The notes beneath the pieces were generated by a model. The model was not told the origin of the DNA, made no database searches, and saw nothing but the letters and a program-made list of their open reading frames with translations. The position numbers were made by a program, and so were the translations under genes. A stretch of DNA of 64,000 nucleotides from an uncultured Gemmatimonadales bacterium (GTDB lineage: Bacteria > Gemmatimonadota > Gemmatimonadetes > Gemmatimonadales > GWC2-71-9): assembly GCA_947259405.1 (NCBI GenBank), contig CAMYLY010000003.1, positions 123,833 through 187,832 of the forward strand. The letters run 5' to 3'. Numbering within the stretch: the first letter of the stretch is position 1; every line of letters starts with the position of its first letter. Positions 6,312 to 57,994 of this stretch are shown piece by piece.

Positions 6312-6340
6312 TTTACACCGGTGCAATGTTCTGCTACGAT
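6312..6340 (+). promoter_or_regulatory. Candidate sigma70-type promoter for the glutamate dehydrogenase gene
   Basis: TTTACA (6312-6317), a 17-nt spacer, then TACGAT (6335-6340), about 30 nt upstream of the ATG at 6373. Pattern match by eye only. Confidence 0.35.
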
Positions 6341-6372
6341 GTTCCGTCTTTGGTCACCCCTGCTACCTAACG

Positions 6373-7773: not shown

Positions 7774-7803
7774 CGAGTCCTCTCCGCTCCGGGGCGCGCG
7801 TTT

Positions 7804-8277
7804 CTACTGAACCGTCTCCGCGGCGAAGTTGATCACGTCGGGCTGGACAAGGCGCGCAAAATCCTCGAACGCCAGTTGGATCAACTCCGTGTGCGTGCCG
7901 GCGTTGAACGCAATCACGTCGTCCTTCGTGAGATCTTTGGCGACGTACACCCGCATCCCGTAGAGATTCCCGAACGGCGGCATGGCGCCCGGCTCGCAGT
8001 CGGGGAAGCGTTCGGCGAACTCCCCTTCAGTCGCGAGTTCAACCAGGTCGGCCCCGATCGCGGCACGAAGGACCCCGAGCTCCACGTGCTCCGATGCCGG
8101 CAAGACGGCCATCGCGAGGTTGCGATCGATCTTGAGAATCACCGTCTTGGCCAGTTCTTGACCCGGGATGTGAGCTGACGCGGCCACTTCCTGCGCGGTG
8201 TACGCCGGCGAATGTCGGATCGTCACGTACCGGACGCGGTGCTCATCCAGAAAATTCTTGAGTGTTTTGATCGGCAT
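7804..8277 (-). CDS. YbaK/ProX-like aminoacyl-tRNA deacylase domain protein
   Basis: I trimmed the ORF-track 209-aa ORF to the internal ATG at 8275-8277 (MPIKTLKNFLDEHRVRYVTIRHSPAYTAQEVAASAHIPGQELAKTVILK...). The 52-aa upstream extension is Cys/Pro-rich junk. Fold assignment comes from sequence resemblance to the YbaK/EbsC family. Confidence 0.7.
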   Translation of the reverse strand: MPIKTLKNFLDEHRVRYVTIRHSPAYTAQEVAASAHIPGQELAKTVILKIDRNLAMAVLPASEHVELGVLRAAIGADLVELATEGEFAERFPDCEPGAMPPFGNLYGMRVYVAKDLTKDDVIAFNAGTHTELIQLAFEDFARLVQPDVINFAAETVQ

Positions 8278-32134: not shown

Positions 32135-33621
32135 TCGAGGCAGTCGGGCGTGCAATGGCCCATGGGAGCCGGCCGGCGATTGTGACACCTACAGGGACGT
32201 CCACGTACCGAGACCTGATCGATGCATCGACGAGGGTCGCTACCATGTTGCTCCGCGGTCGCGAGGATCTCGATGGTGCCCGTGTGGCGTTTCTCACGAC
32301 CGCTGGCGACGAGTACGTGACGGCGCACTGGGGGATTTGGCGCGCCGGCGGGATCGCGGTGCCGTTGGCCACGTCCCATCCGGTGCCGGAGCTCGAACGG
32401 GTCGTGCGCGACTGTCATCCGGAAGTGGTTCTTCACGACGAGGCATTTGGAGCGCGGGCCGAGCAGGTGGCGACCTCGTGCGGTGTCTCGACCACGGATG
32501 TACGAGATGCGGCGGGGCACGACGCGGGCGCCCTCCCCGATGTCGCCGCCGAACGGCGTGCAATGATCGTCTACACGAGCGGGACCACAGGAAGCCCGAA
32601 GGGGGTCGTCACTACTCATGCCAACTATCGTGCGCAGGTTCGCACCCTGATCGATGCGTGGGAGATCACTGCCACCGACCGCACGCTCCTGGTCTTACCG
32701 CTCCATCATGTGCATGGCATCGTGAACGTGCTCGGATGCGCGTTGTGGGCCGGCGCCGCGGTCAACGTCCGAGTGCCGTTTGACGCCGGAGAGACGTGGC
32801 GACGCATGTCGAGCGGTGAGGTGACCGTGCTGATGGCGGTTCCAACCATCTATCGCAAGTTGATCACAGCGTGGGAGTCGATGGATACGGCGGTCCGAAG
32901 GCGAGCGTCCGAGGCATGTCGCGCCATGCGCCTGTTCGTGTCCGGCTCCGCGGCACTCCCGGTCACCGTGATGGCGCAGTGGCGTGAGATAACCGGACAC
33001 ACGCTTCTCGAGCGCTATGGCACGACGGAGACGGGGATGGTGCTCTCAAATCCTCTACAAGGTGGACGGCGGGCCGGATACGTGGGCACTCCCTTGCCAG
33101 GCGTTGAGGTGCGACTCGTCGATGACGAAGGGAGTGACGTGGACGAGGGAAATAGCGGCCAGCTGTTGGTTCGCGGGGACGCCGTGTTTCTCGAGTATTG
33201 GAATCGGCCGGCGGAAACGGCTGCCGCTTCGGTGAATGGGTGGTACCGCACGGGTGACGTTGCGACACTCGAGCATGGTGCCTATCGCATCATGGGACGG
33301 GAGAGCACCGATATCATCAAGAGTGGCGGATACAAGATTTCGGCCCTCGAGATCGAAGAGGTCCTCAGAGAACACGCATCGATCGTCGAGTGCGCGGTGG
33401 TCGGTGTGCCGGACGACGAATGGGGGGAGCGAGTCTGCGTGGCGGTGGAGTGTGTCCGTGGCGCGCTGGTCGACGCGGGCGAGCTTCGTGAGTGGTGTCG
33501 TGACCGGTTGGCACCCTACAAGATCCCGCGGTCCGTTACGGTGACTACGCTGCCGCGAAACGCGATGGGCAAGGTGACGAAGCCCCAAGTGACCGCCCTC
33601 TTCATCGGGCATCGTCCATGA
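32131..33621 (+). CDS. AMP-forming acyl-CoA synthetase (malonyl-CoA-synthetase/ACSF3-like)
   Basis: 496 aa. It contains the AMP-binding motif IVYTSGTTGSPKGVVTTH, plus YGTTETG, YRTGD and GGYKISALEIE. It has an ATGA overlap with the upstream gene. Confidence 0.85.
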   Translation: MIEAVGRAMAHGSRPAIVTPTGTSTYRDLIDASTRVATMLLRGREDLDGARVAFLTTAGDEYVTAHWGIWRAGGIAVPLATSHPVPELERVVRDCHPEVVLHDEAFGARAEQVATSCGVSTTDVRDAAGHDAGALPDVAAERRAMIVYTSGTTGSPKGVVTTHANYRAQVRTLIDAWEITATDRTLLVLPLHHVHGIVNVLGCALWAGAAVNVRVPFDAGETWRRMSSGEVTVLMAVPTIYRKLITAWESMDTAVRRRASEACRAMRLFVSGSAALPVTVMAQWREITGHTLLERYGTTETGMVLSNPLQGGRRAGYVGTPLPGVEVRLVDDEGSDVDEGNSGQLLVRGDAVFLEYWNRPAETAAASVNGWYRTGDVATLEHGAYRIMGRESTDIIKSGGYKISALEIEEVLREHASIVECAVVGVPDDEWGERVCVAVECVRGALVDAGELREWCRDRLAPYKIPRSVTVTTLPRNAMGKVTKPQVTALFIGHRP

Positions 33622-35078
33622 GGTGGATTGCGACGCATTGGATCGTGTTGGTCATGTTCGCCGTCTATACGGCGTTCTTGGTGCATCATGCCATCGCAGG
33701 CAAGCGTCGCACGCGCGCGCTATCCGACTACTACGTCGGCGGTCGATCGATGGGCGGTATCGTGCTCGGACTCTCGTTCTTCGCGACGTACTCCAGCACG
33801 AACAGTTTCGTGGGCTTTTCGGGTCAAGCGTACTCGTACGGTGCTGCGTGGCTGCTGTTGGCACCGGCTGCCGTCATCTTCTCGCTGCTTGCATGGATGT
33901 TCGTGGCACCGCGGCTACGGTCCTTCACGGAGCAGCTCGATTCCGTCACGATCCCGGATTTCATCGGCTTTCGGTTTGACAGCACAGCGGCGCGCTTTAC
34001 AGCGGCGTTGATCGTGCTGTTCGCGAGCTTCCTCTATATGACGGCCATCTTCAAGGGCATCGGCAATCTCCTCGAGGTCTTCCTCGACATTCCATATGTC
34101 GTGGCGATTTTCATCGTGCTGGTGATCGTGATGGTGTACACAGCGGTCGGCGGCTTCATTTCGGTCGTTCGGACGGACGCCCTCCAGGGCATCGTCATGT
34201 CCTTTGCCGCGCTCCTGCTCTTCGTCGGCACCGTGTCTGCGGCAGGCGGATTGGGGACCATCGCCGATCTCAAGGTCGACCCAGCCACGGCGGACCTCTT
34301 CCGTTGGGACACCGCGATGCCGTTTCCGGTGCTGATCGGCATCATCATGGCCGGCACCATGAAGTTCATCGTCGAACCGCGCCAGTTGTCGCGTTTCTAT
34401 GCGTTGGAAGATGAGCGCGCACGAAAGCAAGGGCTGTGGGTTTCCACGCTCACGTTCCTGGTTGTCTATGCCATGCTGCTGCCGATCGGGCTCTACGCCC
34501 ATTCAGCCATCCCGCAGACATTGACTGACACGGATCTGGTGGTTCCCACCCTGCTGGACAGCGATGTCTTCGCGGCACCCATCAGCGCGTTCCTCCTCGT
34601 CGCAATGGTTGCCGCGGCGATGTCGTCACTCGACAGCGTGCTCCTCGTGATGGCATCGACCTGCGAACGCGACGTCGTCGGCATCTGGCAACGGGCGCTG
34701 ACCGACAGAAAAGCGCTCAGAGCCACGCGCGGGTACGTCGCGCTCTTCGCAGTGATTACGGCCGCCATCGCGCTCGACCCGCCGGGACAGATTGTCGAGC
34801 TGACGGTCTTTTCGGGCGGGCTCTACGCCGCCTGCTTCTTTCCTGCTATTGTGCTCGGTCTCTACTGGCGTGGCGGCACGGGCGTCGGTGCGGTTTCGTC
34901 GTTCGTCGTGGGCACGCTGAGCTATGCCGTCTGGCGCGCGCTCCCCGTGAGCGAGGTGGTCCATGAGGTATTCCCCGCCATGGTGCTGGCCACGGGCACG
35001 TATGTGGTGGTTGGGGCGACCGTGGGGCGGAAGCCGGCGATCGTGGGGGAGCTGTTTAGGACGGGCAGCGAAGGGTGA
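33618..35078 (+). CDS. Sodium:solute symporter family transporter
   Basis: 486 aa, polytopic. The N-terminal motif is YYVGGRSMGGIVLGLSFFATYSSTNSFVGFSG. It has an ATGA overlap with the synthetase gene. Confidence 0.85.
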   Translation: MRWIATHWIVLVMFAVYTAFLVHHAIAGKRRTRALSDYYVGGRSMGGIVLGLSFFATYSSTNSFVGFSGQAYSYGAAWLLLAPAAVIFSLLAWMFVAPRLRSFTEQLDSVTIPDFIGFRFDSTAARFTAALIVLFASFLYMTAIFKGIGNLLEVFLDIPYVVAIFIVLVIVMVYTAVGGFISVVRTDALQGIVMSFAALLLFVGTVSAAGGLGTIADLKVDPATADLFRWDTAMPFPVLIGIIMAGTMKFIVEPRQLSRFYALEDERARKQGLWVSTLTFLVVYAMLLPIGLYAHSAIPQTLTDTDLVVPTLLDSDVFAAPISAFLLVAMVAAAMSSLDSVLLVMASTCERDVVGIWQRALTDRKALRATRGYVALFAVITAAIALDPPGQIVELTVFSGGLYAACFFPAIVLGLYWRGGTGVGAVSSFVVGTLSYAVWRALPVSEVVHEVFPAMVLATGTYVVVGATVGRKPAIVGELFRTGSEG

Positions 35079-41875: not shown

Positions 41876-42886
41876 CTAGTAGTTCTCCATCCCGTCCACG
41901 GCTTGTCGGAGCTTGCGCACGCTCTCGACGACGGCGGCCGGCCGTTCTTCGAAGATGTAGAGACCTACATCAGGCACAGAATCGACGGCGAACGCGGGCA
42001 GCGCGCGACGGAGTACGTCGATTTCCTGCGTGGGAACGGATCCCGCGTGTTCGGCCGTGCCGATCATCAAGCGAACTGGGGATTGAATGCTGCCGAGGGT
42101 GGATTCCAGCGTCCACGGTTCGGTTGCTCGGCCCATCCCTTGTAACGCGTCGATGGTGGCGCCAAGGTCGCGCGCGGCGTCGTCCGTATACCCATACACC
42201 ACGTCGTCCGTGATCCACGACGGATCACCGGCCGATTCCACCATCCGTCGGTACACGATGCTGCGGAAGAGGTCTTTGCCCCCGATGATCTTGAGTGCTG
42301 GCGCGAAGCGCATCGAGCGTCGGAATCCCGAAGTCACCGCCTCCTCGGTGGGCCCGCCTCCGATCGACACGATGCCGTCGACCAAGTCCGGTCGCTGCAC
42401 TGCGAGCCGGAAGGCCATCGATGCACCAATCGAGTGCGCGATGACGATCGCGCCACCCACGCCGAGTGAATCCCCAACGGCCGCGATCCTTACAGCCTGT
42501 GCCGTGAGCGAATAATCTGCGTCTTTGGGCCGTGACGACGCGCCGATTCCCAATGGTTCCACGGCCAACACCTGGTATCCCTCTCCGACGAGGAGTGGTG
42601 TGAGCTGTCGGAATCCATAGGAGGCGCCGAAGATGCCCGGAACGAGCACGACGGGCTTGCCGGCACCAGTCACGGTAACAGCGAGCGTCTCCGCGGGCGC
42701 GACAGGGATCTTGTGAACCTGAATCGTGTCGGTGATGGCGAGGAGGCAGAGGAGCAGCACGTTGAATGCAAGCGGGTTGGGTGCGTTTGAGCAACCCTGT
42801 GGCGTGTGGGGCCGCGGCCCATTCGTCGGCGGGATCTCCCCAGGTCGCGGACTTCCGATCCGCAATCTCCAATCTGCATTCTGCAA
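41876..42886 (-). CDS. Alpha/beta-fold hydrolase
   Basis: It contains VVLVPGIFGASYGF and the nucleophile elbow VIAHSIGASMA. The 5' end is uncertain. The first ~12 codons of the ATG-42886 model are encoded by the heptamer repeat at 42862-42896 and are followed by a Pro/Gly-rich stretch. An internal GTG near 42745 (MLLLCLLAITD) is an alternative. Confidence 0.7.
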   Translation of the reverse strand: MQNADWRLRIGSPRPGEIPPTNGPRPHTPQGCSNAPNPLAFNVLLLCLLAITDTIQVHKIPVAPAETLAVTVTGAGKPVVLVPGIFGASYGFRQLTPLLVGEGYQVLAVEPLGIGASSRPKDADYSLTAQAVRIAAVGDSLGVGGAIVIAHSIGASMAFRLAVQRPDLVDGIVSIGGGPTEEAVTSGFRRSMRFAPALKIIGGKDLFRSIVYRRMVESAGDPSWITDDVVYGYTDDAARDLGATIDALQGMGRATEPWTLESTLGSIQSPVRLMIGTAEHAGSVPTQEIDVLRRALPAFAVDSVPDVGLYIFEERPAAVVESVRKLRQAVDGMENY

Positions 42887-42896
42887 TTCATTCAGC
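42862..42896. repeat. GCAATCT-type heptamer tandem array
   Basis: The units are gcaatct ccaatct gcattct gcaattc attcagc. It shares the 9-mers gcaatctcc and atctgcatt with the 54791-54826 locus. Confidence 0.6.
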
Positions 42897-42964
42897 CCGT
42901 CTTCAGGCCTGCTTTAAGCTTGGACGTCGATCTTACCTGATCCGCGACCGGCAGGGAGGCGGAG

Positions 42965-43987
42965 ATGGTGGTTGCGAACGGGGATCGCGACAAGCTCGCC
43001 GCGCTGGAGCGCCTCGGGTTCGAGCGCAGCCAGACGGCGCGCGTCGAGTCGGAAACGCTCCGGTTCGGCCTAAACAAGTGGCGTACGAAGAGTTGGCTGC
43101 CCGCCATGGGCACGCGCGTCTCGGTGACAGCGCTTGGCGCGTCGCCGGCGCGGACGGAGGAGGCAACGGGCCGCGCGATCGAGGAGATGGCGCGACTGAT
43201 CGCGCTGCTGAGCCGCTATGAACCCGGGTCCGCCCTCACCTGTCTGAACGACGCGGGCACCCTCCGTCACCCGCCCCTGGAGCTGCGGCGCGTGGTCGTC
43301 AGCTCGGCGCTCTACCACACCATGAGTCGCGGCGCGTTCGACGTGACGGTCGCGCCCATCGTCGACCTCTACCGCGCGAGCGGCGGCACGATCCCCAGCG
43401 AGGCGGCCACGCGCGAGGCCCTGCAGCTGGTCGGTCCGCGCCACATCACCATGTCCGGGCACGAACTGCGATTCGAGCGGTCCGGGATGTGGATCACGCT
43501 GGACGGGATTGCCAAAGGGTTCATTGTGGATGCCATGGCCGGCGAGCTCCAACGGCACGGTATCCGTGATTTTCTGATCGATGCGGGCGGGGATATTCGA
43601 ACGTCGGGCACCAACCAGGCGGGCGACGCTTGGCGTATTGCGGTCCGCGATCCCGCCGGCGCCGGCATCACCGGGGACACGATTCCCGCCTCGAACGCTG
43701 CAATCGCCACGTCAGGCGGGTACGAGAACTACTTCGGTGTTGACACGCATCTCCATCACATCGTCAACGGCACAACGGGTACGTCGCCGCATCGCGCGGC
43801 GAGCGTGACGATCATGGCCCCGACCGCGATGGCCGCGGATGCGCTGGCCACTGCCGCGTTCGTCATGGAGCCGTCGGGCGCGGTCGACCTCATCGAGTCG
43901 ATTCCCGGCTGTGCGTGTCTCGTCATCGATAGCGAAGGCCATCACCTACCATCTCACGGCTGGCACACCGAGGTGCAGTCATCATGA
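42965..43987 (+). CDS. apbE: FAD:protein FMN transferase (ApbE family), no signal peptide
   Basis: 340 aa with a GGGAGG SD. An in-frame stop at 42938-42940 rules out a longer N-terminus. The motifs are AMGTRVSVTA, FDVTVAPI, ITLDGIAKGFIVD, LIDAGGDI, AIATSGGYENYF and ADALATAAFV. The N-terminal 45 aa are hydrophilic. Confidence 0.9.
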   Translation: MVVANGDRDKLAALERLGFERSQTARVESETLRFGLNKWRTKSWLPAMGTRVSVTALGASPARTEEATGRAIEEMARLIALLSRYEPGSALTCLNDAGTLRHPPLELRRVVVSSALYHTMSRGAFDVTVAPIVDLYRASGGTIPSEAATREALQLVGPRHITMSGHELRFERSGMWITLDGIAKGFIVDAMAGELQRHGIRDFLIDAGGDIRTSGTNQAGDAWRIAVRDPAGAGITGDTIPASNAAIATSGGYENYFGVDTHLHHIVNGTTGTSPHRAASVTIMAPTAMAADALATAAFVMEPSGAVDLIESIPGCACLVIDSEGHHLPSHGWHTEVQSS

Positions 43988-44505
43988 CGCAAGCAGAACA
44001 TACATACACGAAGTTCCAGGCCACCGCGCTCGTCGTCCTGCAGTTGTTCATTGGCTGGCATTTCCTCTATGAAGGATTCGCCAAGCTCTTGAATCCGCAT
44101 TGGACGGCGGCGGGGTATCTCGCCGACTCGCAGTGGTGGTTCTCAGGACTGTTCGTTCGCCTGGCCGCGAGCCCCGCTGCTCTCACGGTCGTGGACTTCC
44201 TGAACGTCTGGGGACTGGTGGCCATCGGTGCGGGCCTGATGCTCGGTTTGTTGACGCGGTACGCCGCGATGGCCGGTATTGCGCTCCTGCTCCTGTACTA
44301 TGTCGCTGCTCCCCCTTTCGCCGGATACGTATACGGGGCGCCGACCGAGGGCAGCTACCTCGTGGTCAACAAGATTCTGATCGAGACAGCTGCATTGATG
44401 GTTCTCGTTGCCTTCCCCACGCGTGGCGTCTTTGGACTCGACCGATTAGTGGCGGCGTGGCGTGGCAAATCCGAAGCGCAGTCCCTCAAACAAGCAACCG
44501 CGTGA
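43984..44505 (+). CDS. DoxX-family membrane protein
   Basis: 173 aa with 4 TM helices. The N-terminal region contains LVVLQLFIGWHFLYEGFAKL. It has an ATGA overlap with the apbE stop. Confidence 0.8.
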   Translation: MTQAEHTYTKFQATALVVLQLFIGWHFLYEGFAKLLNPHWTAAGYLADSQWWFSGLFVRLAASPAALTVVDFLNVWGLVAIGAGLMLGLLTRYAAMAGIALLLLYYVAAPPFAGYVYGAPTEGSYLVVNKILIETAALMVLVAFPTRGVFGLDRLVAAWRGKSEAQSLKQATA

Positions 44506-44515
44506 GGAGTGAACG

Positions 44516-46093
44516 ATGAACGACCAAAGCCAAAAACCAGAGCATTGGACGAATATCAGCCGACGCGGTTGGCTCAAAGCGCTCGCCTCGTTGCCGGTCG
44601 TCGGCGTGTTCTTCTACAACTTCCTGAAGAAGAAAGCCAAGGACGACGCCGCGCAGGAAGCCATCATGTCCGAACTGCGCGTCCGCGAGGGTGGTCCGGC
44701 GTTCATTCCCGAGGCGGTGTCGCGACCACCCGGTGATCGTATCGGCATAGGGATCATTGGCATGGGCGGAGAGGGAGAGGCGTTGGTACGTCACGCGGGG
44801 TTCGCGCATCCGGAATGGATCGACGAGTCGCATGAAGAGCTCAAGGAGAATCCGGCCAGTAAGCGTCTCGAGACGTACCTCAATCAAGAAGACCTCAACA
44901 TCGCGATTACCGCGGCGTGCGATGTGTTTGACGTGCGCGCCGATCGTGCCATTGCGGCGTCGCAAGCGGAGGTGCGCTCAGGCGGCGGGCCGGCACTGGG
45001 TCCGGCCACGCGGTATCGCCGGTACACGGAAATGCTGGAGAGCCCGGATGTCGACGCGGTGATCATCGCCACGCCCGATCACTGGCACTCCCGCATGACG
45101 ATTGATGCCGCGGCCATGGGGAAGCACGTCTACTGCGAGAAATGCCTGACGCGCACCGAAGACGAGGCACACGCGGTCTACGACGCCGTCAAGAACTCCG
45201 ACATCGTGTTCCAGCTCGGGCACCAGAACCGGCAGTCGGAGAGCCACAGCAAGGCGAGCGAAGTCATCGACGCCGACATCCTCGGGCCGATCACGCTCGT
45301 AGAAGCGACCACGAATCGGAACACCACGTGGGGCGCGTGGGTGTGGGACATTCATGAGGATGGAAATCCGCAGACCATCGATTGGGAACACTTCCAGGAA
45401 CCGGCGCCCAACAAGGTGCCGTTCAATCTCGAGCGCTTCTTCCGCTGGCGCTGCTGGTTCGACTACGGCACCGGGTTAGCAGGCGACCTCTTGTCACACG
45501 AATACGATGCCGTGAACCAAGCACTCCAGTGTGGCATCCCACACTCGGCGTTTGCGTCTGGGGGGATCTACTACTTCAAGGACGGGCGCGACGTACCCGA
45601 TGTGTTCCAGGTCGTGTACGAGTATCCCGACCGCGACATGACGTTCGTGTACAGCGCGACGCTGGCGAACAGCAACTACCGCGGTCTCAAGTTCATGGGC
45701 CACGATGCGACCATGGAAGTGAGCGGCACGCTGTCCGTTACCGCTGAGCGCGACTCGACGCGCTACAAGGACAAAATCGAGGAAAAAATCATCGATCCTG
45801 CGCGGCCGATGTTCACGTATCGTGCCGGCTTCAAGGGCATCGACGCCGTCACGTCGGCGACCGAGCAGTACTTTGCCAGTCGCGGACTGCTGTACACGTA
45901 TCGGGAAGGCAGGCGCGTCTCCGCGTATCACTTGTTGATCAAGGACTGGCTTGACTGCATCCGGTACGGTGGCGAGCCCGCCTGCAACATCGAGCGGGCC
46001 ATCGAGGAGGCGATCACGTGTCACATGGCCACGCGATCACTGGAGGAAGGCCGATTGGTGAAGTGGGATCCAGTGCAGCGACGGATTGTCTGA
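44516..46093 (+). CDS. Tat-signal-anchored Gfo/Idh/MocA-family NAD(P)-dependent oxidoreductase
   Basis: 525 aa. It has the twin-arginine motif NISRRGWLKALASLPVVGVFFYNFL followed by KKKAKDD. The Rossmann motif is IGIGIIGMGGEG. It also contains VDAVIIATPDHWH and HVYCEK. The motif D443-A-V-T-S-A-T449 lies near the C-terminus. Confidence 0.85.
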   Translation: MNDQSQKPEHWTNISRRGWLKALASLPVVGVFFYNFLKKKAKDDAAQEAIMSELRVREGGPAFIPEAVSRPPGDRIGIGIIGMGGEGEALVRHAGFAHPEWIDESHEELKENPASKRLETYLNQEDLNIAITAACDVFDVRADRAIAASQAEVRSGGGPALGPATRYRRYTEMLESPDVDAVIIATPDHWHSRMTIDAAAMGKHVYCEKCLTRTEDEAHAVYDAVKNSDIVFQLGHQNRQSESHSKASEVIDADILGPITLVEATTNRNTTWGAWVWDIHEDGNPQTIDWEHFQEPAPNKVPFNLERFFRWRCWFDYGTGLAGDLLSHEYDAVNQALQCGIPHSAFASGGIYYFKDGRDVPDVFQVVYEYPDRDMTFVYSATLANSNYRGLKFMGHDATMEVSGTLSVTAERDSTRYKDKIEEKIIDPARPMFTYRAGFKGIDAVTSATEQYFASRGLLYTYREGRRVSAYHLLIKDWLDCIRYGGEPACNIERAIEEAITCHMATRSLEEGRLVKWDPVQRRIV

Positions 46094-46242
46094 CCGTATT
46101 CCTCACCGTCTTCGGGTTGGCTGTGGGGAGGATCGTGGATCGGCGTGGGGTGCGATCGAGGGGCTCGGCACGATGTGAGCAGTAGCCGGAGCATTCACCG
46201 CTCGGCTCGATGGTGCGAGCCCCCGGTCGTCGACGGGGGGTG

Positions 46243-47970
46243 CTATTGAGGTTCGCGTCGTTGCACTCTCCAGCTGCGCTCACCTTCACCGGGCACGAGT
46301 TCCCATCCGTCGGCTAAATCCAGTACCCAGCCGTCACCGGTCATGGGTGCGCCGTCTGCTGCGCCCGTCACCGGTACGACAACCGCTGTGATGAAACGAT
46401 CGTCGCGCACCAACAAGACACCACCGGAAGTTACGTCCAGGATGCCCCACTCATCAGTGATCCGTGCCGCGTCGTACACGGTCCCGATGCCCTGGAGAGG
46501 GTTCGCGCCGTTGGGGTTGAAGGAGTAGCGAAAGCTCGCTCCGGGAGCGACGGTGAGCGTCGGCGACTCGAGAAACCGCGTTCGCAACTCAGCCTGCACG
46601 GCGGCCTCCTGATCGGCCCGATCCTGTTCCTGGGCGATCACGCGTGTTCCGTCGTAGGCTGCCACACGTGACTCGGCGCCGGCATGGCGAACACGAAGCC
46701 CGTGCGCATCAGCAAGCATCGCGCCGAGGTCGCTCGTGGCAGTCACGTTGATACGCCAATTGTCTTCGACCGCGTCGAGCAACAGACCGTAGGCGGGACC
46801 TGAGGCATACGCGAAGCTCCGTACGAAGCTGTCCTGCAAATCGCGACGGCTGAGTGCAATGGCCGCGCGGTCGGCGAGCACGGATCCGGGCAGACCGCTC
46901 ATCACGAGCCCCGTGTATTCAGCGATTCCTTCGTTCAACTCAAGTGCGTTTTCAGTGGCTGCGGCACCGGGCACCAGCGAACGGCGGCGAGCGCGGAAGG
47001 CGAGGGCATCCTCGATGGCCGTTCGGCGATCCGCACCGCCACGCAGCAAAGCCTCGGCCAAGGCGCGCCATTCGAGGCGCAGCCAGATCCGACCGTCGCG
47101 TGTGGCAAGATGGTCGTTGGCCGGGTCCGACGCCGGCAGATTGAGGGCAGGCTGCAGGCGATGAAACGATTCGTGGAACAGCAGTTGTTGTCGAGCGTAT
47201 CGGTCCGACGGGACGGGCCACGCCACCATCGTCCACCTCCGTCCCGCCCACTCGAACGCGGTGTTGGCGATACTCTGATCTTCGGGAAGCGTCCCAGTCC
47301 ACACGCCGCCTTGGTCCGTCAGCATCTGTGCCGAGTCGGGGGCGTTGGCGGCAATGAACCGTGTGGCGCGGTCGACGAACATCAGTGGGCCCCGAAGGTC
47401 TTTACCCCAGAGCGCGCCGCCGTCAGCAGCACCGGCGGCCTCGACCTCGGCGAAGTATTGCCGAACCCACTCGAGGGGGATCGGTGTGTCTTGCGTTGGA
47501 TCCGTACCGTCTCGCCCTTGCCATTGGATCGTGCCGTCCTCGACGAGGTCGATCTTGAGGGCGTGGGTGGGGTCGTCCGTGTGAAACGTGATCGTGTTCC
47601 CGATGGTTGAGATGCGTGACAGCGGGAACGGAAGACCGTCCATGGACGCCGCCAGTACTTTCCGGTCTCGAACCTCGAGTGTGAACACGCCGGCAGCATC
47701 CCGGCCGTCAAACGCGTAGGACAAAGGACGCGACGCGGCAATAGGGGCCGCACCGATCACCGCTACAGCTGCTGCGGTCACCAACGCCGCCACCGACCAC
47801 TGGTGAGGTCCCCAGTCGCGCGCGCGCGACTGATGAAGTGCCATGCTGATGGTGTCCACCCACGCGCGCCCATCGCGGCGCGCGTGAAGCTCGGCCAAGT
47901 CCCCCAACAGCTCCTCGTGCCGACCGGGAGCGCAGAGCAGCCGGATGCACCACTCGATAAGGCGGCTCAT
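46243..47970 (-). CDS. PadR-coupled single-pass membrane protein with periplasmic HExxH (peptidase-MA-like) domain
   Basis: I place the start at the ATG at 47968-47970, which makes an ATGA overlap with the padR stop. The layout is a cytoplasmic N-terminal ~55 aa, then a TM helix (WSVAALVTAAAVAVIGAAPIAA), then a ~500-aa external region. The external region contains LLFHESFHRLQ and, ~70 aa downstream, LELNEGIAEYTG (a gluzincin-like third ligand). Confidence 0.6.
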   Translation of the reverse strand: MSRLIEWCIRLLCAPGRHEELLGDLAELHARRDGRAWVDTISMALHQSRARDWGPHQWSVAALVTAAAVAVIGAAPIAASRPLSYAFDGRDAAGVFTLEVRDRKVLAASMDGLPFPLSRISTIGNTITFHTDDPTHALKIDLVEDGTIQWQGRDGTDPTQDTPIPLEWVRQYFAEVEAAGAADGGALWGKDLRGPLMFVDRATRFIAANAPDSAQMLTDQGGVWTGTLPEDQSIANTAFEWAGRRWTMVAWPVPSDRYARQQLLFHESFHRLQPALNLPASDPANDHLATRDGRIWLRLEWRALAEALLRGGADRRTAIEDALAFRARRRSLVPGAAATENALELNEGIAEYTGLVMSGLPGSVLADRAAIALSRRDLQDSFVRSFAYASGPAYGLLLDAVEDNWRINVTATSDLGAMLADAHGLRVRHAGAESRVAAYDGTRVIAQEQDRADQEAAVQAELRTRFLESPTLTVAPGASFRYSFNPNGANPLQGIGTVYDAARITDEWGILDVTSGGVLLVRDDRFITAVVVPVTGAADGAPMTGDGWVLDLADGWELVPGEGERSWRVQRREPQ

Positions 47971-48293
47971 GAGCGCGCGGGGGCTTGGATCGCGTTCCAC
48001 AGGTAGTCGCGCAGCGTGCGCGCTTCGGCCATGGCGGCTTGGCCTCGGCCGGTGATGCGGAACAGCCGCTTACGCTTGCCACCGCGTTCGGCTGTGGTGC
48101 CGCCCATCCGCGACTTGACGAGTCCTTTGCGCTGGAGTCGATCGAGTGTGGCGTACACCGCGCCAACCGACACGCGGTTGCCCGTACCTTCCTCCAGGTG
48201 GTCTCGAATCGTCACGCCGTATCCGTCGCCAGCCAATCCGGCGACCGCCAGCAGTACGAGCTCTTCGAACCCACCGAGTCGCTCTTCGGCCAT
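47967..48293 (-). CDS. PadR-family transcriptional regulator
   Basis: 108 aa. It contains LVLLAVAGLAGDGYGVTIRDHLEEGTGNRVSVGAVYATLDRLQRKGLVKS. Confidence 0.9.
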   Translation of the reverse strand: MAEERLGGFEELVLLAVAGLAGDGYGVTIRDHLEEGTGNRVSVGAVYATLDRLQRKGLVKSRMGGTTAERGGKRKRLFRITGRGQAAMAEARTLRDYLWNAIQAPARS

Positions 48294-51534: not shown

Positions 51535-54500
51535 CTAGCGCTCCGCGACCAACGCCGCAATCCGCTGGCGCACGTCTCCAACCACGGGTTGTAACTCGGG
51601 ATCGGCGTCCTGCCATCGATCGACAAAGCGGCTGTAGTACGCGATCGCATCGTCGCGTTCCCCGCGCGCTTCGTACAGCTCGCCCAGCCGTTTGTGCACC
51701 TGTGGCTGCCAGAACGCATCCACGTTGATGCGGTTGTATCTCAGTGTGGCGTCATACTTGCGGAAATAGTGGATGGCGGAGTCGGCTGCGCCGAGGCGAT
51801 CGAACGTGCTGGCCAGGGCGATGGCCGACCGCCTTTCCGACCAGTAGCGCGCGTCGGAGGAATGGAACCCCAACAGAGATTGCTCGAGTTGCCCTCGTGT
51901 CTGCGCGATCACAGCTTCGGCGGCCGCGAACCCCCGATTGCGGGCTTGTACCGTTTCTGGAACCTGGGAACGATACGCGCTCCAGGCCGCCTGTGCGCGG
52001 GCGGGCTGGCCAGCGTGCGCGTAGAAGCGTACGAGGTTGAGGTACGGCCGGTCGGCCGGTGCAAGGGAGTCGAAGGGGAACCGCTCGAGTGCGCCTTCAA
52101 TCTCGCCCAGCGCACGAGCGGTGTCGCCCTGAAGGGCAAGGTGCATCCACGCGATACGCTCAGCGGCGAAGAAATACGGCCGTCCACGTCCCTGTCGTTC
52201 AAAGGTTCGCATTGCCTCGCGCTCGTGCCGTTCAGCCTCGGTGAGCTTGCCCTCGAATTCCGCGAGCCGCGCCAGCCACCAGGACGTGTTCGCTTGAACC
52301 GCCTGGTTCGACGCTAAGCGCCCACGCAGCTCCGTGATGTGCCGCCGCGTCTCCGACACACTGCCCGTGTCGAAGGCGATGTGGGCCCGGTGGTAGCTCG
52401 GCGCCGGGTTGTCCGCGGGGAGCAGTTCTTCCAACTGGTCGATGGTCCGGCTCGCCTCCTGGAACTCGCCCAATGCCACCTGGGCCTGGATGAGCCCCGC
52501 GAACATGAAACTTCCAGTGCCTCCGCGATCAATGGCCTCCCGGCTCATCCGCGCCGCGTCGGAGTAACGACGCACCCCCCGGTACATCACCGCGAGGTTG
52601 TTGTAGCCATTTAGGTGGTCTGGATCGAGGCTCACGAGCGCTTCGTACGCATCGATGGCCTCGTCCAGGTCACCGGTGACGAGCCAGTGATACTTGCCGG
52701 CGATGTAGTACTGCTGGGCATCCGGTAGGCGGGACCGGAGCGTGAACGCCCGCGTCATGGCCTCGTCGACCCGTGCCGGTTCGCGTCCTTCGTTCGACAG
52801 GTAGGTGCCGATGCGATCCCACGCTTCGGCAAACGTCGTGTCGATCTCGACGGCGCGTTCGTAAAACGGCAATGCGGCATCGAGGTCGCCGGTCATCCAC
52901 ATCGTTCGGTTGCCTTCAGTGAAGTTGCGCAGAGCGTCGAGCGACGACGTGGTGGCGCGCGAGAGACGAGGACTCGCGCGCAAGTTGCGCAGGGATTCGC
53001 CCGTACGCTCTCGCAATTGGCGTGAGAGCGATTCGATGGCCGAGATGATCTGCCCGTCGTCTGATGCCGTCGCACGTACCCCCGTGAGGTCCGTGCCATC
53101 ACCCGCGCCGACAACGGTGGCACTCAGCACGTATCCTGCTCCAGCAGGGTTGATCTCGCCAACTACGATAGCCTCTGCGCCCTCGCGAATGGCAATCTCG
53201 CGCGCAAGGGAAGGCTCGAGTGGCAATGTCGGGTCGCGCTCCATCCGTTCTAGGACCTCGACGACGTCACTGAGCGACATCAGCTCGACCGTCGAGGTCT
53301 GTGCCAAGTCGATCCGCAACGCCTCGGTCACGGTTTCTGAAATGCCAGCGTCCGTGTTGTCCGAAAAATCCGCTAGGACCACCAACGCACCCTCGGTGAG
53401 TGCGTTGGACGATACCAGGGTCGCCGCGGGTCCGATCCCGAACGTGCGCATCCCGGCCCATGCGGTGGCAGCGATAACGAGTGCGGTCAGCGCGGCGCCT
53501 GCTCCGGCGATGGTCCGGCGCCACCTAAACCATCCCGCAATCCCGGTGGGAGTTTCGAGCATGGCACCCGTTGTCCGCGCCAGTGCCCTCTTCCGTTCGT
53601 GGTGGCCGGTGAGCAGCATGGCGGGAAGACCGAACGCGAGAACTGCGATGGCGCCCGACAACACCCACGACGGTAGTCCTATGAAGTTCATGGTGGCGTA
53701 CACCAAGGCGACCACGCCGACACTGGCCAGCGCGTAGAGTGCGGCGACGCGCACCGGGTGCGCGCGACGTGCCGCCTCGTGATGCTCAACAGCCGCGACT
53801 GGCTGCGTGCCTGTTGGCGTCATGCCGCCGCTTGGCGTCGCCATCGACTCGAACTGCACGCGGAGTTCCTCCACGTGTTGCCAGCGGTCGGCCGGCTTCT
53901 TCGCAAGGCAACGCATAACCAGCTCGGCCAGCGCGACGGGGACCGTGTCGCGGTGGGCGGTTACCGGATCGGGATCTTGGGTGACATGGGCCGCCAGCAC
54001 TCCCTGGGGCGTTCCGCTGGTGAAGGGAGGCCTGCCCGTCAGCATCTCGTACGCCATCGCGCCCAGCGCGTAGACGTCTGCACGGTGGTCGATGGTCGGA
54101 TTCGCCGCCGCTTGTTCCGGCGACATGTAGGCTGGCGTGCCGAGTGCCACACCAACAGACGTGAGCGTGTCGCCGCCACTGGACTCACTTACGGCCTTGG
54201 CAACCCCAAAGTCTGTCACGACCGCGTGATTGCCCGTCAGCAAAACGTTGTCCGGTTTCACGTCGCGGTGCACGACGCCGTGTTCGTGGGCGTAGGCCAA
54301 CGCATCGGCCACGTCGCGCAGGATTCGCGCGGCTTCCCCAATGGGCAGCTCGCCTTCGCGGGCGAGCTTGGCACGCAGCGACTCGCCCTCGATGAAGGGC
54401 ATCACGTACCACAGCAGGTCACCGTGCGAGCCTGCGGTGAGGAGGGGGACGACGTGCGGATGTTGGAGACGCGCCGCGAGTTGAATCTCCCGTCGGAACC

Positions 54501-54675
54501 GGTCGATGTTGACGCCGGCGGACATCTCGGGCGGAAGCACCTTAATGACGACCTGGCGTCCGAGCTCTGTCTCCTGGGCCAGGAACACGCGACTCATGCC
54601 CCCACCGCCAAGTTCACGCTCGATACGGTACGTGTCGCCGAGTGCCGATTTCAGGCGGCCGACCAGATCCGGCAC
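51535..54675 (-). CDS. Hanks-type Ser/Thr protein kinase with TM segments and large TPR-repeat C-terminal region
   Basis: 1046 aa. It contains LGGGGMSRVFLA, VVIKVL, HRDVKPDNVLL, DFGVAK and GTPAYMSPEQ. Hydrophobic helices fall around aa 330-420, followed by repeated TPR-like helices. Confidence 0.9.
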   Translation of the reverse strand: MPDLVGRLKSALGDTYRIERELGGGGMSRVFLAQETELGRQVVIKVLPPEMSAGVNIDRFRREIQLAARLQHPHVVPLLTAGSHGDLLWYVMPFIEGESLRAKLAREGELPIGEAARILRDVADALAYAHEHGVVHRDVKPDNVLLTGNHAVVTDFGVAKAVSESSGGDTLTSVGVALGTPAYMSPEQAAANPTIDHRADVYALGAMAYEMLTGRPPFTSGTPQGVLAAHVTQDPDPVTAHRDTVPVALAELVMRCLAKKPADRWQHVEELRVQFESMATPSGGMTPTGTQPVAAVEHHEAARRAHPVRVAALYALASVGVVALVYATMNFIGLPSWVLSGAIAVLAFGLPAMLLTGHHERKRALARTTGAMLETPTGIAGWFRWRRTIAGAGAALTALVIAATAWAGMRTFGIGPAATLVSSNALTEGALVVLADFSDNTDAGISETVTEALRIDLAQTSTVELMSLSDVVEVLERMERDPTLPLEPSLAREIAIREGAEAIVVGEINPAGAGYVLSATVVGAGDGTDLTGVRATASDDGQIISAIESLSRQLRERTGESLRNLRASPRLSRATTSSLDALRNFTEGNRTMWMTGDLDAALPFYERAVEIDTTFAEAWDRIGTYLSNEGREPARVDEAMTRAFTLRSRLPDAQQYYIAGKYHWLVTGDLDEAIDAYEALVSLDPDHLNGYNNLAVMYRGVRRYSDAARMSREAIDRGGTGSFMFAGLIQAQVALGEFQEASRTIDQLEELLPADNPAPSYHRAHIAFDTGSVSETRRHITELRGRLASNQAVQANTSWWLARLAEFEGKLTEAERHEREAMRTFERQGRGRPYFFAAERIAWMHLALQGDTARALGEIEGALERFPFDSLAPADRPYLNLVRFYAHAGQPARAQAAWSAYRSQVPETVQARNRGFAAAEAVIAQTRGQLEQSLLGFHSSDARYWSERRSAIALASTFDRLGAADSAIHYFRKYDATLRYNRINVDAFWQPQVHKRLGELYEARGERDDAIAYYSRFVDRWQDADPELQPVVGDVRQRIAALVAER

Positions 54676-55323: not shown

Positions 55324-56382
55324 ATGCCCGATGACCCTGCCCGTCTCGCCCAAGCCGATGAGACACTGCTCGCGGCACCCTTCGATCCCGGGAGGCCCGA
55401 GATCACCGGCGACGTCGTCCCGTTCGAGTCGGGGGTCATTGTCTACACCGGCGGCGCGGCGCAATTCGATGTCGCGGCGTCGGGTACGCTCGTCTATCGT
55501 CGGACCACCGACGACTTCCTCACCACGCTCGTGATTCTGGACCGGGGTGGGAACCGTATCGAGCGGCTCCCGCTCGAGCCCAGTACGGTGTTCGACCCTC
55601 GCTATTCGCCCGATGGCTCGCGCATCGTCATGGGCATTCAGCGTGGTAGTGACGCCGACATCTGGATGTACGACGTCGCGCAACAGTCCACGTCGGTCGT
55701 CACCGAAGCCGGCATCAATGTGTATGGAGCGTGGACACCGGATGGACGCCGCATCGTGTTCTCGTCGAACAGTCAGGGTCAGCAGGATCTGTTCTGGGTT
55801 TCGGGCGCGTTACCCGGCGAACCCGAGGTGCTCGTAGACACGCGGCCGGAACAGTGGGCGAGCAGCTTTTCGCCGTTGGGTCCCACACTGTTCTGCAGCG
55901 AGCGGAAGGTGACGAGCAGTATCGACATCATGGCCATGACCGTTGGCGATACGGTTCGCAGCGTGCTCGAAACGAGCGCGGACGAGGTGGACCCGGCAGT
56001 CTCGCCGGACGGACGATGGCTCGCGTACGCCTCCGATGAAACGGGTGTGAGTGAGGTGTATGTCGTCAGCGCAGATGGGGACGGTCGACACGTTTCCGTT
56101 TCGCGTGGTGGTGGGGGTGTGGCCCGCTGGGCCTCGGGCACCGGCGAGATCTTCTACATTGCGGGTGACACGATCCTCGTCGCGGCACGCTACGTCGAGG
56201 TGCCCGAGTTCGAGGTGGTGTCGCGCGACACGCTGTTCGCCCATCCCAACCTCTCGTGGGGGGCGTATGACGTGCACCCTGATGGTGATCGGTTCGTGCT
56301 GGTCGACGGAAGGGCGCCCAGTCCTCGCGTCATCGTGGTGCGGGGAGTGCTGGAAGAGTTGCGTCGGGTACCAGGTCGATAA
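55324..56382 (+). CDS. Stand-alone TolB-like beta-propeller ORF, equivalent to only the C-terminal ~340 aa of the kinase-propeller paralogue (possible relic)
   Basis: 352 aa with no signal peptide or TM helix. A stop lies immediately upstream, at 55318-55320. It aligns by eye with the tail of the 58006-60684 product: AAPFDPGRPEITGDVVPFESGV against VAFDPAKHTLEGRPVEVHSGV, with repeated SPDG/TPDG blades. Confidence 0.5.
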   Translation: MPDDPARLAQADETLLAAPFDPGRPEITGDVVPFESGVIVYTGGAAQFDVAASGTLVYRRTTDDFLTTLVILDRGGNRIERLPLEPSTVFDPRYSPDGSRIVMGIQRGSDADIWMYDVAQQSTSVVTEAGINVYGAWTPDGRRIVFSSNSQGQQDLFWVSGALPGEPEVLVDTRPEQWASSFSPLGPTLFCSERKVTSSIDIMAMTVGDTVRSVLETSADEVDPAVSPDGRWLAYASDETGVSEVYVVSADGDGRHVSVSRGGGGVARWASGTGEIFYIAGDTILVAARYVEVPEFEVVSRDTLFAHPNLSWGAYDVHPDGDRFVLVDGRAPSPRVIVVRGVLEELRRVPGR

Positions 56383-56428: not shown

Positions 56429-57994
56429 ATGACCGACACCCCCTCCCGTCTCACCACGGCACTGTCCGATCGCTATGCCATCGAGCGCGCCGTCGGCGCC
56501 GGCGGCATGGCCACCGTCTACCTCGCCGAAGACCTCAAGCACCGGCGGAAGGTCGCCATCAAAGTCCTACGGCCGGACATTGCGGAGGTGATCGGTGCCG
56601 AGCGATTCCTGAAGGAGATCGAGGTCACGGCCAAGCTGCAGCATCCACACATCTTGCCCCTCCACGACTCGGGCGAAGCGGACGACTTCCTGTATTACGT
56701 CATGCCGTACGTCGACAGTGCGTCGCTCCGTGGTGTGATGAACGGGCAAGGGCAACTCGACCTGCCGTACGTGCTGCAAATGGCGAGCGAAGTTGCCGGC
56801 GCGTTGGATTATGCGCACCGGCAGGGCGTGCTGCACCGCGACATCAAACCGGAGAACATATTGCTTTCAGAGGGCCACGCCGTGGTGGCGGACTTTGGGA
56901 TCGCGAAGGCCATCACCGCGGCCGGCGGGGACAACCTGACGATGACGGGGTGGGCGCTCGGTACGCCGGGCTACATGAGCCCGGAGCAGGCGACCGGGAG
57001 CGGAAAGCTCGATGCACGCAACGACGTGTTCAGCCTCGCATGTGTCGTTTACGAAATGCTGACTGGGGCTACGCCCCAGTTGTGGCCGACCGATGAGGAA
57101 GTGCGCGTCGGGCGGTTCCTCGACGCTCCACCCGAACATCGCGCGGTGTTCGATGCGCATCCCGTCACGGTGGAGCAGGCGCTGACGAAGGCAATGGCGA
57201 TGCGGCCGGCCCACCGGTTCGCGACGCCGGGTGAACTGGCCAACGCGCTCCGCGCGCAGCCAGGGAAGGGCGGTTCCTACGACACCGCGCAGGTCCGGGA
57301 GATCGTGCGACGTGCCACCGACGATGAGGTGCAACGGCCCACGGAAGATGCCCCGCTCACGTTAGGTGCCGTCCAGCGGATCGGCGCCGAGGCAGGGATT
57401 CGACCGCAACGCATCAAGGACGCGGCGGCGTCACTCGACAGACCGGTTGAGGATCGAGGCAAGCGCAGCATCCTGTTTGGCCCGGACGCCCAGGTCGACA
57501 TGGAAACGGTCGTTGGTCGCGAAATCACCGACGACGAGTACGAAGAGCTGTTGGCGGAGATCCGTGGTTCGATGGGCGAGGTCGGTCGGCTCAACCAGAC
57601 CCTCGGGAAGTCGCTGAGTTGGAATTCGCTCTCGTATCAGAACACGATCGAAGGGTCTGGGCGGTTGACCCATGTGATGGTCAAACCGGGTGACGGTGAA
57701 ACGAGGATTCGCATTACCGAGGGTAGTGGGCAGCAGCCGGCGTTTCTGGCAGCCGGGGCTGCCATTGGGGGCGTGGGTGGCATGATGCTGGCGGCCCTTC
57801 TCGACATGCGAGAAATCATCGTGCCGGTAGCGGCGCTGGGTGCGAGTGGAGCTATGGTCTTCGCTCGCTCGGTGTTGATGCGGATCTTGGCGAAGCGGCG
57901 TCGGCATCTGACCGCGCTGCTCGCGCGTCTCGGTGCGCTGGCAGGGGGGGCGCGGGATTCGAGTCACGTGCTCCCCACGGGCGAAGACGTATAG
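56429..57994 (+). CDS. Hanks-type Ser/Thr protein kinase with unknown middle domain and C-terminal TM pair
   Basis: 521 aa. It contains VGAGGMATVYLAEDLKHRRKVAIKVL, HRDIKPENILL, DFGIAK and GTPGYMSPEQ. The C-terminus is AFLAAGAAIGGVGGMMLAALL...VAALGASGAMVFA. Confidence 0.9.
   Translation: MTDTPSRLTTALSDRYAIERAVGAGGMATVYLAEDLKHRRKVAIKVLRPDIAEVIGAERFLKEIEVTAKLQHPHILPLHDSGEADDFLYYVMPYVDSASLRGVMNGQGQLDLPYVLQMASEVAGALDYAHRQGVLHRDIKPENILLSEGHAVVADFGIAKAITAAGGDNLTMTGWALGTPGYMSPEQATGSGKLDARNDVFSLACVVYEMLTGATPQLWPTDEEVRVGRFLDAPPEHRAVFDAHPVTVEQALTKAMAMRPAHRFATPGELANALRAQPGKGGSYDTAQVREIVRRATDDEVQRPTEDAPLTLGAVQRIGAEAGIRPQRIKDAAASLDRPVEDRGKRSILFGPDAQVDMETVVGREITDDEYEELLAEIRGSMGEVGRLNQTLGKSLSWNSLSYQNTIEGSGRLTHVMVKPGDGETRIRITEGSGQQPAFLAAGAAIGGVGGMMLAALLDMREIIVPVAALGASGAMVFARSVLMRILAKRRRHLTALLARLGALAGGARDSSHVLPTGEDV

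Follow-up and report, generated by a model that had tools for sequence, protein, structure and literature searches.

ApbE-type flavin adenine dinucleotide (FAD):protein flavin mononucleotide (FMN) transferases recognize the motif D-x-x-[S/T]-G-A-[S/T] and place FMN on its last residue (PMC12052999). In Klebsiella pneumoniae, a leaderless ApbE works in the cytoplasm, where it flavinylates a soluble fumarate reductase (PMC12052999). The 2021 survey of flavinylation noted that genomes with orphan apbE genes imply undiscovered substrates; since its filter kept only genes with a signal peptide or a lipidation site (PMC8238504), leaderless ApbEs would drop out, and a module such as the one described here would have been missed. 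In the supplement to that survey, the NADH dehydrogenase of extracellular electron transfer (EET) appears within flavinylation gene clusters as a fusion of Pyr_redox_2 and DoxX domains (PMC8238504). As for periplasmic sugar oxidation, the Gfo-type dehydrogenases BT2158 and AL3 hold a tightly bound cofactor that is recycled by a second sugar substrate (PMC8121099; bioRxiv 10.1101/2024.03.25.586180). How nicotinamide adenine dinucleotide (NAD) is re-oxidized in such enzymes, which reach the periplasm by twin-arginine translocation (Tat), was left open (PMC8121099; bioRxiv 10.1101/2024.03.25.586180), and the work on BT2158 could only propose an unidentified second sugar as the re-oxidant (PMC8121099). 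Here we analyze a 64,000-nucleotide stretch of DNA (the window) from an uncultured Gemmatimonadales bacterium (assembly GCA_947259405.1, contig CAMYLY010000003.1, positions 123,833 to 187,832), in which apbE, doxX and a gene for a Gfo/Idh/MocA dehydrogenase (gfo) are packed together on the forward strand at 42965-46093.

We propose that the three genes form one maturation-plus-function unit, in which electrons would pass from sugar to NAD, to FMN on Thr449 (T449) of the dehydrogenase, and on to DoxX and quinone. We put the chance that this full scheme is correct at about one in two; it is a supported and, in our judgment, well-founded hypothesis, not a proven mechanism.

Results

DoxX and the dehydrogenase as an obligate pair

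Scanning 185,579 species genomes for the pattern gave 80 loci, whose six-frame open reading frames (ORFs) were then searched with the three window proteins (loci are cited below by L numbers). Counting the window and two loci that were looked up separately, there are 51 module loci; 32 loci with ordinary Tat-Gfo relatives served as controls. At every one of the 51 module loci, doxX is directly adjacent to the subfamily gfo gene and on the same strand, compared to none of the 32 controls (Fisher p = 1e-23), and the DoxX-Gfo pairing is obligate for this subfamily. An apbE gene lies near the module at 11 of the 51 loci and at 0 of the 32 controls (p = 0.005). The original prediction had been made from a single genome; by both counts, the synteny is conserved well beyond it. 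Chance adjacency of the three genes was considered and rejected, because the arrangement recurs across phyla in unrelated genomic contexts.

The carriers belong to Gemmatimonadota, Aminicenantes, Neomarinimicrobiota and many Bacteroidota, that is, at least four phyla, with one gammaproteobacterial metagenome-assembled genome (MAG) in addition. Cultured carriers are found within Bacteroidota in Odoribacter laneus (YIT 12061), Dysgonomonas (sp. 521), Prevotella sp. 10(H), Algoriphagus (A. alkaliphilus DSM 22703) and Carboxylicivirga (C. sediminis JR1). Even where the gene order is swapped, adjacency is kept: in a Bacteroidales clade (L042-L045, positions ~5950-8150), the dehydrogenase gene precedes doxX with a 4-nucleotide overlap. 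The dehydrogenase of these four loci is 37% identical to that of the window, and its motif reads DAVSSAT.

The position of apbE varies with lineage. An apbE-doxX-gfo operon is present at all Gemmatimonadota loci (the window, L001, L002, L004, L005 and L083-L085) and in a Bacteroidetes MAG (L046). Three of these (L083-L085) came from look-ups anchored on distinct leaderless ApbEs of the Gemmatimonadota type, all of which gave apbE-doxX-gfo. For Dysgonomonas and Prevotella, apbE is farther downstream in the same operon (operonic in Bacteroidales L016, L017, L086 and L088), and in Aminicenantes and at one Neomarinimicrobiota locus it is nearby on the other strand.

A flavinylation-like motif specific to the DoxX-linked subfamily

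The dehydrogenase contains an ApbE-type flavinylation-like motif, D443-A-V-T-S-A-T449 (45842-45862), of which T449 is the predicted FMN attachment site. This motif, which the original prediction had not noted, belongs to the strongest evidence in its favor. DAVTSAT agrees with the ApbE motif at six of seven positions, the exception being Ser in place of the consensus Gly. All of the best 120 homologues (at least 70% identity) carry DA[VIM][TS]SAT. Among representatives of 50% clusters, the motif is found in nearly all complete members of ~500-540 residues with at least 36% identity, and two representatives, P0136 and P0139, have the canonical DAVSGAT. Ordinary Tat-Gfo relatives (~400-490 residues), farther down the same list of representatives, do not have it. 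Across 47 full-length members taken from the genome loci, the Asp is conserved in 100% and the final Thr in 96% (Ser in the rest), and the subfamily consensus is D-x-[VILY]-[TSA]-[STG]-[AP]-[TS], with the final T/S invariant. Relatives that lack DoxX have ...QPS... or ...SPT... in the equivalent segment, where both the Asp and [ST]-[SG]-A are missing. By this comparison, the T/S is older than the subfamily, and the Asp and [ST]-[SG]-A are specific to its DoxX-linked members.

When the dehydrogenase was shuffled with its composition preserved, the motif appeared by chance in 0.5% of trials. Frames of at least 100 codons in the window hold four matches; DAVTSAT is the only one within a long, plausibly coding ORF, and the other three were judged spurious by frame alone. 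At 9 of the 11 loci with apbE, the DoxX-adjacent Gfo is the only neighboring ORF with a strict motif. No neighboring ORF has one at the other two (L004 and L005), where the Gfo carries the variants TTPT and TTAT.

In the AlphaFold model, the motif loop (residues 439-448, 45830-45859) is the only internal segment of low confidence, with a predicted local distance difference test score (pLDDT) below 50, and T449 begins a helix (448-455). A loop that is strictly conserved but poorly modeled would fit a site that is disordered unless a cofactor or partner is present. We infer from the motif that T449 may carry covalent FMN. No Nqr, Rnf, NosR or FMN_bind gene was found in the 64-kb window, by Pfam searches of 23 of its longer ORFs and a motif scan across the whole of it. 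DoxX was also considered as the ApbE target and was rejected, being without an [ST][GS]A[ST] motif.

Leaderless ApbEs linked to the module

The window ApbE (apbE, 42965-43987; 340 residues) is a homologue of FAD:protein FMN transferases with an N-terminal extension of ~46 residues in place of a signal peptide. It matches PF02424 with E = 1.1e-68 over residues 48-319 (profile positions 1-265 of 266), and ApbE chains in the PDB match it with E values down to 2.9e-32. The position of the catalytic His (His257 in Vibrio cholerae) is kept: HHIVNGTTG of the query aligns with SHIIDPTTG of 6nxi, and 6nxj, a His-to-Gly mutant, reads G at the aligned position. Judged by its sequence, this ApbE is of a divergent subfamily, scoring 111.6 bits, below the curated cut-off of 498, against NF007774, the equivalog model for E. 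coli-type ApbE.

No hydrophobic stretch or lipobox is present in its first 46 residues (maximum 12-residue Kyte-Doolittle mean, 0.05). There is an in-frame TGA at 42938-42940, and the eight codons between it and the apbE ATG contain no alternative start, so the protein cannot be longer. The hydropathy profile and this stop codon agree with the original prediction, which had denied the protein a signal peptide, a lipobox or a longer N-terminus. The closest 120 relatives, which are of the Gemmatimonadota type, all lack a hydrophobic leader, and all have the ~46-residue extension, 'kLaaLe.lGFER'. We speculate that this extension (42965-43102) might be a docking or proofreading element for the Tat substrate.

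The operonic ApbEs of Dysgonomonas and Prevotella are leaderless too but do not have the Gemmatimonadota extension, which suggests to us that they lost the signal peptide independently. A scan of metagenomes with the Dysgonomonas ApbE as the query gave a clean split. Its three nearest relatives (59-75% identity; L086, L087 and L088) are leaderless. L086 and L088 have the order doxX-gfo-BT2158-type dehydrogenase-3-keto-disaccharide hydrolase-TIM barrel-apbE, with tatC alongside; L087, a 2.5-kb contig, shows only the TIM barrel-apbE-tatC end. Farther relatives with a readable N-terminus have lipoprotein-type signals (two contigs were truncated or unclear), and the module was not found with any lipoprotein-signal relative in that scan, where L094-L096, with 10-17 kb of context, are a meaningful negative. 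The tatC gene directly follows apbE in L016, L017, L086 and L087 and adjoins it on the opposite strand in L088. Whether a Bacteroidales ApbE has lost its signal peptide tracks with whether it belongs to the doxX-gfo operon. Leaderless clades of ApbE go with the module in two phyla: Gemmatimonadota and, through Bacteroidales, Bacteroidota.

A lipoprotein ApbE is encoded divergently from the module in Aminicenantes (L006, 4069-4911, reverse strand; L003, 3-272). Between that gene and the module lies a gene for a NusG_II-domain protein with an RR-containing N-terminus.

The dehydrogenase N-terminus

The dehydrogenase (gene at 44516-46093; 525 residues) begins with a twin-arginine motif, S15-R-R-G-W-L-K21 (44558-44578), in which R16, R17 and L20 are nearly invariant. 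It continues with a hydrophobic stretch, A22-L37, of 16 uncharged residues and the basic cluster K38-KKAKDD44 (together 44579-44647), so that SRRGWLK, the hydrophobic helix and KKKAKDD all read as first reported for this protein. The N-terminus fits the Tat consensus [ST]-R-R-x-F-L-K with its hydrophobic region, and RRxxLK is kept across phyla. AlphaFold places helices at 16-24 and 27-54.

Throughout the module proteins, RRxxLK is followed by ~16 uncharged residues; of the 12 residues after these, mostly 3-7 are K/R, and an AxA site is missing. Control Tat-Gfo relatives, by comparison, have ordinary, Ala-rich Tat signals that look cleavable. The missing AxA site and the basic cluster, unlike the control signals, make a retained signal-anchor plausible, and the N-terminus is probably an uncleaved Tat signal-anchor. 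This type of N-terminus occurs together with the DoxX partnership.

Fold and active site of the dehydrogenase

The protein matches PF01408, PF22725 and PF02894, and its AlphaFold model has a mean pLDDT of 85.6. Among solved structures, those closest to it are levoglucosan dehydrogenase, DgpA and the Alistipes glucoside-3-dehydrogenase AL3, described as sugar C3-type dehydrogenases. More than 6000 relatives were found, the best 120 having at least 70% identity. Against 52 aligned relatives, the Rossmann dinucleotide-binding loop G79-IIGMGGE-G87 (44750-44776) has G82, G84 and G87 invariant or nearly so; D136, which closes beta-2, is invariant, as is E208-K209 (45137-45142), the family's 'EKP' catalytic Lys motif, which here reads EKC. 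The catalytic pair DxxxH, D324-LLS-H328 (45485-45499), corresponds to Asp248 and His252 of AL3 in an HMMER alignment to 8tdf, and H328 is invariant. With that alignment and the numbering of the AL3 paper (bioRxiv 10.1101/2024.03.25.586180; paper number = chain index + 29), five AL3 residues, Gln161, Arg192, Trp195, Asp248 and His252, align to Q237, R268, W271, D324 and H328, all of them conserved. For the sixth, Tyr349, the equivalent depends on a low-identity alignment, and an intermediate family is without that Tyr; MAFFT tentatively places the flavinylation-like motif just after the segment aligned to it. With its NAD-binding and catalytic residues intact, the protein looks like a working NAD-dependent sugar dehydrogenase. 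It is not a member of the BT_2158 family (NF058561), scoring 124.9 bits over part of that model against a cut-off of 750. At one Gemmatimonadota locus (L084, 6068-7900), the dehydrogenase that follows apbE-doxX is broken into fragments, probably through frameshift errors in the assembly rather than as a pseudogene.

The DoxX partner

DoxX (doxX, 43984-44505; 173 residues) is a small DoxX/DoxD-type membrane protein with four predicted hydrophobic helices. Against PF07681, the protein from the window reaches 21.8 bits, just below the 23.6-bit cut-off; among its orthologues, 35 of 36 match this family (best E = 2.3e-9), and 15 of 36 also match DoxD (PF04173), a subunit of thiosulfate:quinone oxidoreductase (TQO). 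Residues L19, G24, W25, E30, G31, K34, W40, L46, N74, G82, G88, P110, G123, K130, P145 and G151 are invariant or nearly so. Neither this DoxX nor the dehydrogenase subfamily has a specific NCBIfam model. By analogy with TQO DoxD and the EET fusion of Pyr_redox_2 and DoxX, delivery of electrons to quinone would take place at DoxX.

At L083 (8138-9156), a second doxX gene and a gene for a MarR regulator lie just downstream of the module on the opposite strand. A gene of the vitamin K epoxide reductase family (VKOR) comes directly after the module at L085 (8174-9490).

A setting in 3-keto-glycoside metabolism

Module loci often encode a 3-keto-disaccharide hydrolase (18/51) or a xylose-isomerase-like TIM barrel (15/51). 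A genuine BT_2158-family glycoside 3-dehydrogenase is present at 13 of the 51 (892.6 bits in L016, against the cut-off of 750), and other frequent neighbors are a major facilitator superfamily transporter of the nucleoside:H+ symporter type and a cytoplasmic Gfo paralogue. These neighbors place the module in periplasmic 3-keto-glycoside metabolism.

The Bacteroidales operon (L016, 4007-13428; L017, 4007-13263; L086, 2289-10170; L088, 2-6057) reads (cytoplasmic Gfo)-doxX-motif Gfo-BT_2158-family enzyme-3-keto-disaccharide hydrolase-TIM barrel-leaderless apbE-tatC. Its second Tat-Gfo paralogue is without the flavinylation-like motif.

Layout of the locus

On the forward strand, the stop codon of apbE (TGA, 43985-43987) and the start of doxX overlap as ATGA (43984-43987), which implies translational coupling. 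The 10-nucleotide spacer between doxX and gfo includes a GGAG ribosome-binding site at 44506-44509. On re-reading the sequence, the originally described three-gene layout, with its overlap and 10-nucleotide gap, was found to be correct at every coordinate. Functionally unrelated genes flank the module on the opposite strand, one for an alpha/beta hydrolase upstream and a 585-residue ORF downstream, so that apbE-doxX-gfo is a self-contained unit. A scan of 42600-46400 found no promoter-like site; it found three candidate terminators, the number expected from shuffled sequence, all of them inside genes.

The 585-residue ORF (46243-48293, reverse strand) has no Pfam family, and its start overlaps the end of an upstream gene for a PadR-family regulator; this pair converges on the module. 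Four genes for Ser/Thr protein kinases are found within 12 kb (51535-54675, reverse; 56429-57994 and 58006-60684, forward; 61065-62984, reverse), one of them with TPR repeats and another with PD40 beta-propeller repeats; PD40 also occurs in a protein outside these four, encoded at 55324-56382. At 29234-35078 on the forward strand, genes for an AMP-binding enzyme and a sodium:solute symporter come after one for a 966-residue fusion of an FAD-linked oxidase with a 4Fe-4S dicluster domain; the group looks like a separate catabolic operon.

Discussion

In our proposal, the Gfo/Idh/MocA protein would oxidize glycosides or sugars, most likely at C3, and before export the leaderless ApbE would put FMN, derived from cytoplasmic FAD, on Thr449 of the DAVTSAT loop. 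The folded enzyme would then be exported by Tat with NAD(H) bound, and its uncleaved signal-anchor would tether it to the outer face of the membrane, beside the four-helix DoxX. The tethered FMN would take reducing equivalents from the enzyme-bound NADH and hand them to quinone at DoxX, although the reverse direction is possible. Periplasmic sugar oxidation would then be net and respiration-linked rather than redox-neutral. One can tentatively envision a more particular version, possible rather than probable, in which FMN on the flexible, conserved loop serves as a built-in second substrate that re-oxidizes a non-exchangeable NADH and passes the electrons to quinone at DoxX, with dedicated leaderless ApbEs installing the flavin in the cytoplasm before Tat export.

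Several observations weigh against this mechanism, and some of them also speak for a real membrane complex of DoxX and the dehydrogenase without a flavin. DAVTSAT would then be an ordinary conserved loop or helix cap, and apbE would serve another substrate elsewhere in the genome or flavin trafficking. The terminal T/S is conserved in relatives without DoxX and ApbE as well and so may be structural, unrelated to flavinylation. Pro at -1 (...T[ST]PT..., as in the DoxX-less relatives) occurs at five module loci (L004, L009, L010, L030 and L034), which keep DoxX, and in L004 this variant is found with apbE adjacent. The motif deviates from the consensus by Ser for Gly; Gly-to-Ala and Ala-to-Val substitutions each keep ~50% of flavinylation, Ala being the only replacement of the Gly that was tested (PMC12052999). 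No Pfam match to an FMN_bind, DUF2271 or DUF3570 carrier domain was obtained for the dehydrogenase. Nor is there an apbE within 6 kb at about 78% of module loci, whose organisms would need an ApbE encoded elsewhere. Beyond the flavin, the link from DoxX to quinone rests on few characterized cases. A flavin-free complex nonetheless seems unlikely to us, if worth taking seriously. It would not account for the Asp and [ST]-[SG]-A being specific to the DoxX-linked subfamily, nor for two independent leaderless ApbE clades found only in this operon; no other ORF near these apbE genes has the motif, and the searches of the window described above turned up no Nqr, Rnf, NosR or FMN_bind gene. Flavinylation ahead of export, the logic of the original prediction, fares less evenly. 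The coupling of leaderless ApbE to the module in two phyla speaks for it, but the ApbEs near the module in L046, L021, L006 and L003 are lipoproteins, so it cannot be a general rule.

The nearest characterized relatives, AL3 and BT2158, are redox-neutral, with NAD cycling between glycoside oxidation and keto-sugar reduction; were the window enzyme to work in the same way, DoxX would be a scaffold or an assembly partner. Conservation of the five AL3 active-site residues and the frequent presence of the same pathway genes beside the module are consistent with this. Because a genuine BT_2158-family enzyme is encoded beside the module at 13 loci, however, the module is not simply its replacement, and a redox-neutral reaction would leave the signal-anchor, the obligate DoxX, the motif and the apbE linkage unexplained; we consider it quite unlikely. 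The same architecture might also run backwards, from quinol through DoxX and FMN to bound NAD+, and so reduce periplasmic 3-keto-sugars. Flavinylated systems are known to run either way (PMC8238504), and genes that produce or hydrolyze 3-keto-sugars are frequent neighbors, but NAD+ reduction from quinol is energetically uphill without coupling; we consider this direction very unlikely. Our proposal is further weakened by the basic cluster behind the hydrophobic stretch, which makes an N-out/C-in topology formally possible. The RR motif would then not be a Tat signal, and the catalytic domain would stay in the cytoplasm and be modified in place by the leaderless ApbE, itself a point in favor of this topology; under the positive-inside rule, the mostly 3-7 K/R residues favor it as well. 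Basic c-regions are, however, a known Sec-avoidance feature of Tat signals. In addition, RRxxLK, which is conserved from phylum to phylum, follows the Tat consensus, all relatives have ordinary Tat signals, tatC is part of the Bacteroidales operon, and the pathway partners carry signal peptides. Given these points, a cytoplasm-facing enzyme seems highly improbable.

If the proposed route from sugar through NAD and FMN to DoxX is correct, it would connect periplasmic sugar oxidation directly with the quinone pool, and hence with energy conservation, and it would be a previously unknown wiring of periplasmic NAD-dependent sugar oxidation into respiration. A class of NAD-dependent enzymes would join the substrates of ApbE, DoxX-family proteins would gain a concrete role, and cofactor loading, in the form of flavinylation, would be coupled to Tat export. 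The module is widespread: its carriers range from Gemmatimonadota of soil and sea through Marinisomatota and Aminicenantes to many Bacteroidota, some of them in gut-associated genera. Our literature searches found no paper that joins ApbE with Gfo/Idh/MocA or DoxX with Gfo, in keeping with the original prediction, which knew of no described ApbE-DoxX-Gfo/Idh/MocA module; combinations of flavinylation with 3-keto-glycosides gave nothing relevant, and neither of the main texts of two flavinylation surveys mentions Gfo/Idh/MocA or the DoxX-Gfo pairing.

Among the known sugar dehydrogenases, AL3 and BT2158 (PDB 8tdf and 8tdh), which are Tat-exported with a tightly bound NAD, share with the module enzyme a common fold, a twin-arginine N-terminus, the five aligned NAD-binding and catalytic residues, and a neighborhood with 3-keto-disaccharide hydrolase and TIM-barrel genes. 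They differ in being only ~20% identical to it, soluble and redox-neutral, with a cleavable signal; the probable signal-anchor, obligate DoxX, flavinylation-like motif and apbE linkage belong to the module dehydrogenase. Zymomonas mobilis glucose-fructose oxidoreductase (GFOR), as recounted in PMC8121099, is likewise a Gfo-family enzyme that is exported by Tat with its nicotinamide cofactor bound and works by a single-site ping-pong mechanism. GFOR is soluble, however, with a second sugar as its acceptor, and has no DoxX, flavin motif or ApbE. The role closest to the one proposed here, respiration-linked periplasmic oxidation of glycosides to 3-keto-glycosides, is that of the FAD-dependent glucoside 3-dehydrogenases LacABC and ThuAB, although these use unrelated proteins and cofactors (FAD and cytochrome c).

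For the membrane partner, the parallels are the EET type-II NADH dehydrogenase and TQO, in which a DoxX/DoxD-type module is joined to a quinone-delivering enzyme, as proposed here. The EET DoxX is fused to a cytoplasmic flavoenzyme and DoxD belongs to a thiosulfate:quinone oxidoreductase, whereas the module DoxX is a separate protein paired with a predicted periplasmic NAD enzyme. The systems of NqrC, RnfG, PplA, DUF2271 and DUF3570, all flavinylated by ApbE (Meheust et al. 2021, PMC8238504), likewise pair apbE with an extracytosolic protein that bears the motif and with a small membrane protein that could link it to the quinone pool, and in those carriers, as in the module dehydrogenase, the motif ends in the Thr that would be flavinylated. 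The module departs from them in having an NAD-dependent dehydrogenase in place of FMN_bind, DUF2271 or DUF3570, Ser for Gly in the motif, and a leaderless ApbE. In this last respect it resembles the cytoplasmic ApbE of K. pneumoniae; the target of that enzyme, a fumarate reductase with an FMN_bind domain, stays in the cytoplasm, while the module target has a Tat motif and, once modified, would leave the cytoplasm. Taken together, these comparisons suggest that the module is of the ApbE-dependent extracytosolic electron-transfer type, newly built on an NAD-dependent dehydrogenase and a DoxX partner.

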